A DNA stretch of 46,917 bases, from positions 1-46,917 of IMG/VR virus record IMGVR_UViG_2974695582_000001. One strand, 5' to 3'. The stretch comes from a virus (taxonomy: Duplodnaviria > Heunggongvirae > Uroviricota > Caudoviricetes). Made by a program: the position numbers and the translations under genes. Positions 3,728-5,882 of the stretch are shown piece after piece (within the stretch, counting starts at the first letter, position 1; every line of letters starts with the position of its first letter). The notes under the pieces are model-generated. The model had not been told where the DNA came from and did no database searches. It was given only the letters and a program-made list of their open reading frames with translations.

Positions 3728-3885
3728 TTATCAGGGTCCGTTCCGTTAAACTTTCCGTCTGTTAGCTCAAGAAGCTTCTTGAAAGCTCTCTTACGGCCGA
3801 CACTATCTCCACTATCTCTGGCATCTACAAACTTTCTAAACCAGAAACGCCTATCCTGATAATACTTATCTTCCTTATTAGGCAT
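3724..3885 (-). CDS. Hypothetical protein (53 aa, MPNKEDKYYQDRRFWFRKFV...); not in track
   Basis: Hand translation; fills operon gap. Confidence 0.65.
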   Translation of the reverse strand: MPNKEDKYYQDRRFWFRKFVDARDSGDSVGRKRAFKKLLELTDGKFNGTDPDK

Positions 3886-4090
3886 TGTGTTCACTCACCA
3901 CCGCTCTAATTCGGTCATACAAATCCAAACCCGGCCGGATTGTTGAGTCACAAATAGCACACCAAAGAGTAGGCTCATCATCTTGTCCGAGCCTAGTAGT
4001 TAGATTATGTCCACAATCAGGACACTGTAGATGCTTAACTTTACCTTCATCTGCTAGATGACGATAGTTATGAAAAATTGACCATTCCAT
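3878..4090 (-). CDS. Putative zinc-ribbon protein (CPDC...CAIC)
   Basis: Two CxxC pairs; no obvious RBS. Confidence 0.75.
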   Translation of the reverse strand: MEWSIFHNYRHLADEGKVKHLQCPDCGHNLTTRLGQDDEPTLWCAICDSTIRPGLDLYDRIRAVVSEHNA

Positions 4091-4096
4091 AGCAGC

Positions 4097-4124
4097 AAAA
4101 AAGCCATTGCGGTTTGCAATGGCT
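4097..4124 (-). terminator. Intrinsic terminator closing the tRNA operon
   Basis: Perfect 9-bp stem AGCCATTGC/GCAATGGCT with a U-tract on the minus strand. Confidence 0.8.
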
Positions 4125-4150
4125 AGAGTTCTCCTTCTCTTTAATTTAAG

Positions 4151-4223
4151 AGCCTAGTGTGGGAATCGAACCCACGACCTTTTCCGTACCAAGGAAATGT
4201 TCTACCACTGTCACTAACTAGGC
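4151..4223 (-). tRNA. tRNA-Thr(GGT)
   Basis: Cloverleaf GCCTAGT/ACTAGGC, anticodon arm TTTCC-TTGGTAC-GGAAA, T-arm GTGGG-TTCGATT-CCCAC; CCA not encoded. Confidence 0.95.
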
Positions 4224-4325
4224 GCAGCCCCGAAGGGCGCGGTGCAGGCAGCCGTTTAACTAGTATAAGCCGTCCGCGAAGCTTGTCGGTCCCCAAAAAG
4301 GAGAAGAAAAACGGGACCGACTGCG
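4224..4325 (-). ncRNA. Structured inter-tRNA spacer B (candidate ncRNA)
   Basis: 9-bp stem GTCGGTCCC/GGGACCGAC around a pyrimidine-rich loop; further hairpins AAGCT/GGCTT and GCCC-TTCG-GGGC. Confidence 0.4.
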
Positions 4326-4396
4326 AGCCGGATGATGGAATCGAACCATCGCCTCATCTTTACGAGAGATACAGTCTACCACTGAAATAATCCGGC
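4326..4396 (-). tRNA. tRNA-Thr(CGT), weak D-stem
   Basis: GCCGGAT/ATCCGGC, anticodon arm TATCT-CTCGTAA-AGATG, T-arm GATGG-TTCGATT-CCATC; CCA not encoded. Confidence 0.9.
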
Positions 4397-4508
4397 ATTT
4401 GTAGTCTGCCTCCCCTGCAACTAGGTACTACAGACAAGCCCCGAAGGACATTTCCTCGGAAGCAGAGGTACGGGTCGGTCGCATTCTCACCGCACGTACT
4501 CCCAATTG
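4397..4508 (-). ncRNA. Structured inter-tRNA spacer A (candidate ncRNA; contains the module repeated at 11205-11244)
   Basis: Several stems (GGG-A-GTACG/CGTAC-CTC; TCTGCTTCC/GGAGGCAGA; CTGTAGT/GTTGCAG) and similarity to a second locus. Confidence 0.5.
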
Positions 4509-4581
4509 AGCCGCCTGTCGGTCTCGAACCGACCACCTCTTGTTTACAAGACAAGTGCTCTACCAGATGAGCTAAGGCGGC
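4509..4581 (-). tRNA. tRNA-Thr(TGT)
   Basis: GCCGCCT/AGGCGGC, D-arm GCTC/GAGC, anticodon arm CTTGT-CTTGTAA-ACAAG, T-arm GTCGG-TTCGAGA-CCGAC; CCA not encoded. Confidence 0.95.
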
Positions 4582-4610
4582 AATACCAGTGTAACACACT
4601 GGCGTAAAAA

Positions 4611-4684
4611 GTGCACCCCCGCTGACTTAAACAGCAGACTACCCGCTTATCAGGCAAGGCGTACTATCGTTATACTAGGGTGCA
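4611..4684 (-). ncRNA. Atypical tRNA-like RNA (anticodon-like loop CT-GAT-AA)
   Basis: Acceptor TGCACCC/GGGTGCA, D-stem GTAT/GTAC, stem CTTGC/GCGGG, T-like arm CTGCTG-TTTAAGT-CAGCGG; lacks D-loop GG and the TTCR T-loop. Confidence 0.6.
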
Positions 4685-4743
4685 GGGCTCCGAAGAGCAA
4701 GCTTAGGATAGTATTAATAGCCCCATCCCAAGGCGATAGAATC

Positions 4744-4773
4744 ATCTTAACACGAGCTAGATGTGCTTGTCAA
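4744..4773 (-). promoter_or_regulatory. Promoter TTGACA-18-TAAGAT for the tRNA operon
   Basis: Near-consensus hexamers; -35 overlaps the TGA stop of the Dps-like gene. Confidence 0.8.
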
Positions 4774-5168
4774 GAAAGTGATTCGTTGAACATCCAAGTC
4801 CACTTGTCCAAGCCACGCTGGATTTCGATAAGAACATCCTGTGTAGCAAGGTCATTCTCATACTGACTCAACGCGTTCTTGATGTGAACTGAGTTTGTAT
4901 TGAGATGACTTGAAAGTTCGTCCACGGCTTCATCGAATCGGATAGGTTCAGACGTATAACTGTACTCTACACTACCCGTAACGTGTTGTCCAATAGCCCG
5001 CGCTCTCTCTGCTAGTGTGTCAGCATACCCGTTTAGGTCTGCGTATAGCTCATCTAGCATCGGATGAAGGTAAAGGAATTCGCGTCCACGAAGATTCCAA
5101 TGGAAATCCTTTGTCTGTAGCGAAGCTGTAATCAACCCGCCCAGAATCTCTTCAAGGTTTGCATTCAT
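4770..5168 (-). CDS. dps: Dps-family (ferritin-like) protein
   Basis: Dps signature FHWNLRG..F..LH..LDELY......DTLAERARAIG and C-terminal LDKWTWMF; AGGAGG RBS. Confidence 0.88.
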   Translation of the reverse strand: MNANLEEILGGLITASLQTKDFHWNLRGREFLYLHPMLDELYADLNGYADTLAERARAIGQHVTGSVEYSYTSEPIRFDEAVDELSSHLNTNSVHIKNALSQYENDLATQDVLIEIQRGLDKWTWMFNESLS

Positions 5169-5186
5169 ATGCTTGCCTCCTAACGG

Positions 5187-5882
5187 TTAGTAGCCACACC
5201 TCGGGGCGGTAACCCAATGAGATGCACCTCTACCATTATTCCACAACTTCCAGAATGCTGCATCTTGCTGTGCTGGCGAATAGTTCATCGCCTTACCTGG
5301 AAGTCCAGTCACACTTTGCCAAGTTCCGTCCATGAACTGATAAGCTCCTGACGCTCCCGAGCTTGGATTCAATGCTCGGTAGTTACCACCTGACTCATAC
5401 TTCCGGATACATGCAGCAATCCCACCGGGTGCCACATGGTTATTACTATTTCCGTTTGTATTTGCTCTTGGCTGCTGGACCTTCGGCTTATATACGCGAG
5501 GCTTAGAATTTGCCTCACGCTGCTTCCTGGCCCTTTCTGCCGCAGCAGCTAGCTGTGCCTGACGCTGCTTTTCTGCTGCTTCTGCTTGGGCTTCCTTTCG
5601 GGCCTTTTCTTCAGCGGCCTTCTTCTCTGCCTCAGCAATCTCTCTAACTCTCTTTTCGGCTTGAGCCTTCTGACTCAAACGCTTATCTCTAGCCATCTGT
5701 TCAATGTCTGAAACAAGTGGCTGCCGCGTGTCGCTTCGCGACGACCTATGGTCATCCTCTCCACGGTCCGACTGGCTGTCGGCTGCTACGACAGGTCTTT
5801 CTGTATTACTCTCCACTACTACAAAAGATGTAGTTCCTGCAACTGCAAGGACTGTGGCTAGTGTTGCGAATGTTCTCTTCAT
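5187..5882 (-). CDS. Secreted transglycosylase-like protein (Rpf/SceD-like lysozyme-fold domain)
   Basis: N-terminal signal peptide, Ala/Glu/Lys coiled-coil stalk, C-terminal CIRKYESGGNY...ASGAYQF...TW...SPAQQD...W; AAGGAGG RBS. Confidence 0.85.
   Translation of the reverse strand: MKRTFATLATVLAVAGTTSFVVVESNTERPVVAADSQSDRGEDDHRSSRSDTRQPLVSDIEQMARDKRLSQKAQAEKRVREIAEAEKKAAEEKARKEAQAEAAEKQRQAQLAAAAERARKQREANSKPRVYKPKVQQPRANTNGNSNNHVAPGGIAACIRKYESGGNYRALNPSSGASGAYQFMDGTWQSVTGLPGKAMNYSPAQQDAAFWKLWNNGRGASHWVTAPRCGY

Follow-up and report, generated by a model that had tools for sequence, protein, structure and literature searches.

A probable non-canonical second tRNA-Ile(GAU) gene at the head of a tRNA-Thr operon in Streptomyces phages

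The tRNA-Thr operon and its first gene

We analyzed 46,917 nucleotides (nt) of viral DNA (the window; positions 1 to 46,917 of IMG/VR virus record IMGVR_UViG_2974695582_000001), and in particular a transfer RNA (tRNA)-like element at positions 4611-4684. The DNA is from a Streptomyces siphophage, and the whole record contains 129,015 bases with a GC content of 46%. The region from 3800 to 5300 is 99.6-99.7% identical to the Streptomyces phages SparkleGoddess and Stigma (Stanwilliamsviridae, Gilsonvirus). ARAGORN, with default settings, reported 34 tRNAs and a transfer-messenger RNA in the whole record. The element is on the minus strand in an operon that consists, in order, of a promoter, two leader hairpins, the tRNA-Ile-like element, three tRNA-Thr genes, and a terminator (Table 1). 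This order confirms an earlier interpretation made from the sequence alone (the sequence-only reading), in which the element was said to lead the operon.

We conclude that the element very probably belongs to a conserved family of second, non-canonical tRNA-Ile(GAU) genes, of which it is an unannotated allele. This identification is based on three results. First, Infernal matched a 96-nt slice to the Rfam model RF00005 with a score of 27.3 bits (E = 2.7e-4; the gathering cut-off is 29 bits). Second, ARAGORN called tRNA-Ile(gat) at 4683..4611 when the threshold was set to 95%. Third, orthologs in other phages are annotated as tRNA-Ile(gat) and score 36-40 bits. The element was missed by ARAGORN with default settings and by Rfam searches of long slices, whether gathering or relaxed thresholds were applied. 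Together with the 34 default calls of ARAGORN, it makes up a set of 35 tRNA-type genes in the genome, and it is the only one that lacks both the GG of the D-loop and C56. The ordinary tRNAs score 46-72 bits and all 34 have GG in the D-loop. A model search of the whole genome did not detect a second copy of the element.

There were further sub-threshold matches to the tRNA model in the same genome outside the window, at 72400-72473 (26.4 bits), 80658-80727 (19.1 bits), and 68622-68688 (18.9 bits). These three matches are in the main tRNA region and may be other degenerate or non-canonical tRNA-like genes.

A gene family with two alleles

The gene occupies the same position in 18 records, all of them of Streptomyces phages, and also occurs in several soil contigs. 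It was always the first gene of the tRNA-Thr operon. Nine of the records (two of Gilson, and one each of MeganTheeKilla, Emma1919, Forrest, Jada, Kenrey, Phredrick, and Francob) have an allele with C at position 56 (the C56 allele), which is called by both ARAGORN and Rfam and is annotated in GenBank as tRNA-Ile(gat). The other nine records (SparkleGoddess, Stigma, Belfort, Karp, two of Annadreamy, Limpid, Moab, and Patelgo) have the window-type or Moab-type allele, with U or A at position 56 (the U56/A56 allele). These score 24-28 bits, and none of the nine is annotated at the site. Contigs from IMG/VR and soil metagenomes added variants, giving an alignment of 11 distinct sequences. Two metagenome matches were excluded, one an unrelated high-GC chance match (L026) and the other from an error-ridden contig (L027).

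The sequence-only reading had raised the possibility that the orthologs are normal tRNA-Ile genes and that this copy alone is degenerate. The first part holds only to the extent that the orthologs in eight sister phages are both called and annotated as tRNA-Ile(gat); these too are non-canonical, with no GG, mostly U37, and the low scores given above. The second part does not hold. The undetected U56/A56 allele is present in eight cultured phages and three metagenomic lineages.

The C56-allele genes (SEA_EMMA1919_19, Gilson gene 19, SEA_FORREST_20, SEA_FRANCOB_16) resemble the element in the window in several ways. They come first after the same promoter and leader and precede tRNA-Thr(UGU). 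They have a nearly identical acceptor stem, D arm, and variable loop, the anticodon GAU, no GG in the D-loop, and the same odd junction between the acceptor stem and the D arm. They differ in the T-loop (UUCAAGU or UUCGAUU), in having mostly U37/U38, and in having no extra C after G26, whereas the window allele has U56, A37/A38, and the extra C. The C56-allele genes are separated from tRNA-Thr by a spacer of 2 nt; in the window allele the spacer contains a U-run and a hairpin. A run of five U's directly 3' of the acceptor stem is present in the window, in Annadreamy, and in contig L008, and there is no U-run in the C56 allele, in Moab, or in a contig from Hainich.

When the window was compared to Emma1919 (L002), the flanks were 95-100% identical, and the element together with tRNA-Thr(UGU) (4509-4684) was only 74-78% identical. 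Based on this difference, the two genes appear to be an exchangeable cassette with two alleles. In five other phages (Blueeyedbeauty, Beuffert, Faust, TunaTartare, and Sham), the element is absent and the same promoter and leader run straight into tRNA-Thr(UGU). Among the phage loci compared, no gene was consistently linked to the element except for those of the tRNA-Thr operon.

Fold and register of the element

Both the sequence and the predicted fold of the element have four arms, and covariation in the 11 distinct relatives supports these arms. The cloverleaf is thus intact and its anticodon loop reads GAU, as had been proposed. The minimum-energy fold is cloverleaf-like (-27.5 kcal/mol, z = -2.2), and RNAalifold found the cloverleaf independently from the 11 variants. 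Read along the minus strand, the 5' half consists of the acceptor strand UGCACCC, the D stem GUAU/GUAC with loop AACGAUA, and the anticodon stem CUUGC/GCGGG with loop CUGAUAA. The 3' half consists of the variable loop UAGUC, the T stem UGCUG/CAGCG with loop UUUAAGU, and, last, GGGGGUGCAC.

The ends of the RNA can be placed in more than one register. The sequence-only reading had described 13 base pairs (bp) in the acceptor and T helices together, a first pair U-A, and C as the discriminator. RNAalifold gives this register, with a U4684-A4612 pair and a sixth T-arm pair, C48-G66 (7+6 = 13 bp). In contrast, ARAGORN and Infernal both place +1 at G4683 and the discriminator at A4612, which gives G1-C72, A73, and a 12-bp stack. 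In the ARAGORN reading, the stack is 7+5, with U7.G66 as the seventh acceptor pair and a one-base linker. In the Infernal reading, the acceptor stem has 6 bp and is followed by U8 and A9, and G66 is either free or paired to C48. The 11 variants do not discriminate between the registers, because U(-1), U7/8, C48, and G66 are invariant and A73 is present in 10 of the 11. U is the base favored at -1 by bacterial RNase P, and A73 in the ARAGORN/Infernal register matches the discriminator of the canonical tRNA-Ile of the host and of the phage. The claim that identity elements had been lost was not supported in the form given: two of them, the discriminator C and U1-A72, vanish in this register, and the anticodon loop is the same as that of the host. 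A tRNA-Sec-type tRNA with 13 bp was also considered and rejected; its long variable arm and UCA anticodon are missing, as the element has a variable loop of 4-5 nt and reads GAU.

The elbow and the anticodon loop

The D-loop has no GG, and the T-loop has U in place of C56, both as previously described. The conclusion drawn from this, that both partners of the elbow contact are lost, goes too far. All 11 variants share one G in the D-loop, and in 10 of them this G could form a pair with position 56 (G-C in six, G.U in the window). Alternatively, the base after the invariant G could pair with position 56, as A:U in the window type and U:A in Moab, a pattern that represents two events only. These potential pairs hint that the elbow is rewired and not abolished.

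We compared the conserved and the variable positions of the two alleles. In the 5' part, the positions invariant in both alleles are U-1, G1, C2, the D stem with its flanks (CUAGUA ... UACGCC), A14, A15, and the one D-loop G. In the 3' part they are C32-U33-GAU, most of the variable loop, G53, U54, U55, A58, C61, and the G-run of the 3' acceptor strand. Position 37 is A in five variants and U in six, and position 38 also varies. Position 56 is C in six, U in four, and A in one, and the length of the D-loop ranges from 6 to 8 nt. The anticodon loop in the window has 7 nt, with U33 and a purine at 37 (A37, A38), and its sequence is identical in the element, in the host Streptomyces tRNA-Ile, and in the canonical tRNA-Ile of the phage. 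Each allele thus lacks a different near-universal feature: the window allele has U56 with a perfect anticodon loop, and the annotated allele has C56 with mostly U37/U38.

Sequence conservation and covariation

We used pair changes and sequence identity to evaluate the possibility that the element is a neutral relic, that is, a duplicated tRNA-Ile that has lost its function and is carried along in the operon. Several properties are those expected of a relic. The element fails to reach the threshold of either detector, a canonical copy makes it redundant, and it is absent from the five phages named above. The T stem has a mismatch at its middle pair in three lineages of the window allele (G.G in Annadreamy, L008, and the Hainich contig), in a further relative in run X1 (also G.G), and in Moab (G.A). 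In the clade of the window, however, the T stem is fully paired at this position.

Pairs were counted in our own arm-by-arm parse of the 11 variants. The covariance-model alignment kept a gap misplaced by MAFFT in the anticodon stem of the U56 allele, and was not used for this purpose. We found that 97.4% of the stem cells were standard pairs and that 8 of the 21 pairs had changed on both sides. In 2000 shuffles, the observed pairing was never reached and the number of double-sided changes was reached 23 times; given the relatedness of the sequences, these counts should not be taken as probabilities. There were compensatory double changes in all four stems: A-U to G-C and C-G to U-A in the acceptor stem, C-G to U-A at D13, G-C to C-G and C-G to U-A in the anticodon stem, and G-C to U-A in the T stem.

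As a measure of selection, conservation is more telling than the pair counts. Between the window and contig L008, the element was 95% identical, tRNA-Thr(UGU) was 88% identical, and the neighboring hydrolase gene was 75% identical. The corresponding values for the Hainich contig were 91%, 81%, and 77%. Within an allele, identity ranged from 91 to 97% for the element, from 81 to 100% for the adjacent true tRNAs, and from 75 to 88% for coding sequences, and in every within-allele comparison the element was more conserved than the flanking true tRNAs, the spacers, and the coding sequences. The leader of the Hainich contig could not be aligned to that of the window, and yet the element was kept, with a single change in the acceptor stem that was compensated. 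Because of this conservation and the compensated change, a decaying pseudogene is unlikely, and we regard the neutral relic as improbable. The judgment of the sequence-only reading that random decay does not account for the element was borne out. As far as sequence comparisons can indicate, the element is a selected RNA and not a wreck.

Redundancy, and evidence against an ordinary tRNA

There is a canonical tRNA-Ile(GAU) in the same genome at 67635-67710 (66.5 bits), along with a tRNA-Ile(UAU). The canonical tRNA-Ile(GAU) was kept by all five relatives tested (Emma1919, Francob, Moab, Blueeyedbeauty, and Faust), the last two of which lack the element. Because a canonical copy is present in every phage checked and some lineages do not have the element, the element is dispensable and accessory.

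This redundancy is one of several observations that weigh against a second, working tRNA-Ile gene. The junction between the acceptor stem and the D arm cannot hold a 7-bp acceptor stem plus the usual two-base linker, and a full 7-bp acceptor stem with a one-base linker was found in none of the 34 ordinary tRNAs of the genome. No variant of the family has GG in the D-loop, and position 56 varies between C, U, and A. A purine is present at position 37 in 33 of the 34 ordinary tRNAs, as compared to U37 in six of the 11 variants of the family. Finally, the loss of a different feature in each allele suggests that the function shared by the alleles may not need canonical decoding.

Codon demand counts in favor of a working tRNA-Ile. 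Per 1000 codons, the phage uses 33.6 ATT, 17.6 ATC, and 5.0 ATA; ATT and ATC together amount to 51, and the total for Ile is about 56. This is far above the Ile codon usage of the high-GC host.

Possible roles: a deviant tRNA or a mimic

It is quite possible, and we hold this tentatively, that the element is a deviant but working tRNA-Ile that provides extra supply or serves as a less recognizable copy. The layout of the operon suggests that a polycistronic precursor made from the TTGACA-18-TAAGAT promoter would include the element. RNase P would cut between U4684 and G4683, and the 3' end would be trimmed after A4612. CCA would presumably be added by host enzymes, because none is encoded; a gene for a CCA-adding enzyme was not found in the phage genome. 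The predicted mature RNA would retain a 12-bp acceptor/T stack (7+5, or 6+6 via the invariant C48-G66), U8/A9, A14, G53-C61, U54, U55, and A58, all present in the window, as well as A73 and the host-identical anticodon loop. Judging from the family comparison, the corner formed by the D-loop and T-loop would be rewired around the one invariant G, with 19:56 replaced by G.U or A:U. The RNA could then be charged by the isoleucyl-tRNA synthetase (IleRS) of the host and contribute extra decoding of AUU and AUC to a phage whose GC content (46%) is below that of its high-GC host, supplied from its own promoter at a distance from the main tRNA cluster. Host defenses that cut tRNAs may also recognize this copy poorly.

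The sequence-only reading had favored a mimic or decoy, and such a role is possible for the element. In this alternative, a non-decoding mimic of tRNA-Ile would be processed like a tRNA and would occupy a host factor that reads the tRNA shape and GAU, without delivering Ile to the ribosome. Candidates for this factor are IleRS, the ileS T-box leader, and a nuclease directed at tRNA-Ile. The pattern of conservation is consistent with a mimic. What is invariant is only the shape, C32-U33-GAU, the sequence of the D arm, and the acceptor ends. Features for decoding and for the elbow vary or are missing (A or U at 37; C, U, or A at 56; no GG), the alleles have lost different canonical features, and a canonical tRNA-Ile(GAU) is always present alongside. 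In addition, conservation of the loops and the variable region exceeds that in the neighboring true tRNAs, which fits a sequence-specific partner. Each of three Streptomyces genomes has a single T-box, and in the two loci examined in detail its AUC specifier and UGGU bulge match GAU and A73-CCA. On the other hand, the partners are candidates, and with its fully canonical anticodon loop and A73, the window allele has nothing that forbids charging. The long Stem I platform of the Streptomyces T-box is a further difficulty, as a weakened elbow would cost affinity. We know of no tRNA-Ile-specific nuclease in Streptomyces, and the anticodon stem of the host is not copied in the element. Taken together, we consider a non-decoding mimic somewhat unlikely. 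Mimicry of the host anticodon stem was considered separately and rejected; only the 7-nt loop equals that of the host.

In this family, a tRNA-type gene has stayed under strong selection with no GG in the D-loop and with variation at position 56, position 37, or both. This pattern either broadens what can be called a functional tRNA of the bacterial type or indicates that phages use the tRNA shape for a purpose other than decoding. The conserved RNA gene is unannotated in the genome of the window and in at least nine phage genomes that have been deposited. The natural nulls (Blueeyedbeauty, Faust) and the two natural alleles make genetic tests straightforward.

The T-box of the host

Each of three Streptomyces genomes (L151, L152, L153) had one T-box match, with scores of 44-62 bits that are below the Rfam cut-off; one of the matches was partial. 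The leaders in L151 and L152 have the specifier AUC followed by A, the bulge UGGU, and a long Stem I. The specifier and the bulge therefore fit a GAU anticodon and an A73-CCA end. In S. venezuelae (L152), the T-box is upstream of a class-I synthetase gene, taken to be ileS in line with PMC1262725. The natural ligand of the actinobacterial translational ileS T-box (PMC1262725, PMC7583486) resembles the element in that GAU matches the AUC specifier and A73-CCA matches the UGGU bulge of the Streptomyces leader. It differs in being a canonical host tRNA with a normal elbow.

These matches raise the hypothesis that a permanently uncharged look-alike of tRNA-Ile holds the only T-box of the host, in the translational ileS leader, in the ON state. 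We think that this is unlikely to be the case. If it were true, more IleRS would help a phage with such a high usage of Ile codons, and the hypothesis would account for the invariant anticodon and acceptor end, for the drift of the features that serve decoding and the elbow, and for the retention of a canonical tRNA-Ile alongside. The match of anticodon and discriminator to the single T-box makes this a concrete hypothesis of riboswitch manipulation by a phage. The rewired elbow, however, might weaken the contact with the T-box platform. Independence from the elbow has been described for mycobacterial ileS T-boxes (PMC7583486). In the host Stem I, AGCGA and GGUGAGA align to the motifs AGAGA and GGUGAAA of the elbow-binding platform. 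Because the host Stem I is long and has these platform motifs, elbow-independence of the mycobacterial type cannot simply be assumed here. More broadly, the element could act as a decoy toward a different tRNA-Ile-reading factor of the host.

Comparison to known tRNAs

The canonical tRNA-Ile(GAU) of the phage and of the host share with the element the cloverleaf, the loop CUGAUAA, A73, G53-C61, U54/U55/A58, and the absence of an encoded CCA. Unlike the element, they have C56, GG in a D-loop of 9-10 nt, and an acceptor stem of 7 bp joined to a 2-nt linker, and they lack the extra base at 26. The stems of the phage and host genes are unrelated in sequence to those of the element.

Several phage tRNAs are reported to counter or escape defenses that target tRNAs, including tRNA-Lys of T5 against PARIS (PMC11464382), tRNA-Tyr against retron effectors (PMC11555353), and anticodon-loop variants in mycobacteriophages (PMC10264068). 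Like the element, these are extra phage copies of a tRNA that is already in the cell, with deviations where host enzymes read. The deviations of the element itself are at 37/38, which differ between the alleles, and in the elbow. The defense-evading tRNAs are reportedly canonical in structure and have been shown to decode or to rescue infection. In contrast, the element deviates in the tertiary core, and no nuclease aimed at tRNA-Ile is known in its case.

The non-proteinogenic tRNA-Gly species of Staphylococcus, used for the pentaglycine of the cell wall, are extra isoacceptors that have other bases in place of the D-loop GG and the T-loop consensus, changes thought to divert them from EF-Tu and from ribosomal use. 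They resemble the element in these replacements and in being present beside canonical isoacceptors, and differ in being chromosomal and glycine-specific and in serving the FemXAB transferases. We rejected a non-ribosomal carrier of an aminoacyl group (Fem or CDPS type) for the element, as profiles PF02388, PF13480, and PF16715 (FemAB, Acetyltransf_6, CDPS) had no match to a partner transferase family in the 129-kb genome.

Features of the operon

Coordinates of the operon and of the parts of the element are listed in Table 1.

Table 1. Features of the tRNA-Thr operon and predicted parts of its tRNA-Ile-like element (window coordinates)
Feature	Positions	Strand	Basis or remark
Promoter, sigma-70 type, TTGACA-18-TAAGAT, TG ahead of -10	4744..4773	-	10/12 matches; drives operon
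Leader hairpin 1 (CUUGGGAU ... AUCCUAAG)	4702..4732	-	sequence; right after promoter
Leader hairpin 2, GCUC-UUCG-GAGC	4687..4698	-	sequence; directly 5' of element
tRNA-Ile(GAU)-like gene	4611..4684	-	folds, model alignments, covariation; predicted mature RNA G4683 to A4612
U4684	4684		leader base -1, or pair partner of A4612
Acceptor 5' strand	4683-4678 (+U4677)
A9	4676
D stem	4675-4672 / 4664-4661
D-loop	4671-4665
G, C linker	4660-4659
Anticodon stem	4658-4654 / 4646-4642
Anticodon loop	4653-4647		GAU at 4651-4649
Variable loop	4641-4637
T stem	4636-4632 / 4624-4620
T-loop	4631-4625
G66	4619
Acceptor 3' strand	4618-4613
A73	4612
Trailer: U5 run (4610-4606), then hairpin CCAGUGU-GUU-ACACUGG (4602-4586)	4586..4610	-	sequence
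tRNA-Thr(UGU), operon unit 2	4509..4581	-	65.2 bits
tRNA-Thr(CGU)	4326..4396	-	56.3 bits
tRNA-Thr(GGU)	4151..4223	-	55.4 bits
Intrinsic-terminator-like hairpin and U-run	4102..4124	-	sequence scan; closes operon

A promoter scan detected 6 promoter-like sites, as compared to 1.2 expected. The promoter block of the operon is almost invariant among relatives. The stem of leader hairpin 1 is kept by different letters in Moab and Patelgo (GAGGUG/CACCUC in Moab) and in contig L029 (CUUAGG/CCUAAG), and its loop begins with GGGGCU in most phages. This hairpin is also present in the element-less phages Blueeyedbeauty, Beuffert, and Faust, and is therefore a separate element. The hairpin that relatives have at the site of leader hairpin 2 differs in both sequence and length. 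The trailer hairpin has 7 bp; its stem co-varies between phages, being kept by other letters in Annadreamy and in contig L008, and it is retained in the element-less Blueeyedbeauty and Beuffert.

The trailer hairpin overlaps an extended -10-like motif (TGnTACACT / TGnTATACT) that ends 6 nt before tRNA-Thr(UGU). The hairpin with this motif may be an internal promoter or a processing hairpin.

We also considered a role for the element that is structural or in processing only, as a cutting signal for RNase P/Z or as a stabilizer. A variant of this idea for the window allele is that the acceptor stem and the U5 run might terminate part of the transcription and so set how much leader RNA is made relative to tRNA-Thr. 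The position of the element between conserved leader hairpins and tRNA-Thr(UGU) is consistent with such a role, as is the U5 run directly after the acceptor stem in the window, Annadreamy, and L008, with the -10-like motif just downstream, as if transcription could restart. A cutting signal, however, has no need of an invariant GAU, U33, and 7-nt loop. Moreover, in the C56 allele, in Moab, and in the Hainich contig the element adjoins tRNA-Thr with no U-run, and the element-less phages manage with the same leader and hairpin. We therefore regard a purely structural role as very improbable.

A long terminal repeat is present in cluster BE1 phages (PMC5764925). The idea that the element is inside such a repeat was dropped, as only 734 bases are repeated at the ends of the record.

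Contigs from three soil metatranscriptome runs of one study were 100% identical to 4186-4551, which includes tRNA-Thr(CGU) and both structured spacers, and some of these ended in adapter remnants. One contig covered 4721-4775 and none spanned 4611-4684, a result that is neutral with regard to expression of the element. The contigs could represent precursor RNA or DNA carry-over.

The record of Sham (L017, ON645339.1) lists its three tRNA-Thr genes as tRNA-Gly(ggt), tRNA-Arg(cgt), and tRNA-Cys(tgt), probably by mistake, since the anticodon seems to have been taken for the codon.

When the neighboring hydrolase was used as a query for related loci, no bacterial relative was found. The 132-aa gene at 4770-5168 on the minus strand is an indel, and is absent from Belfort, Karp, Annadreamy, Forrest, and others. 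In phages without this gene, the hydrolase gene reaches directly to the operon promoter.

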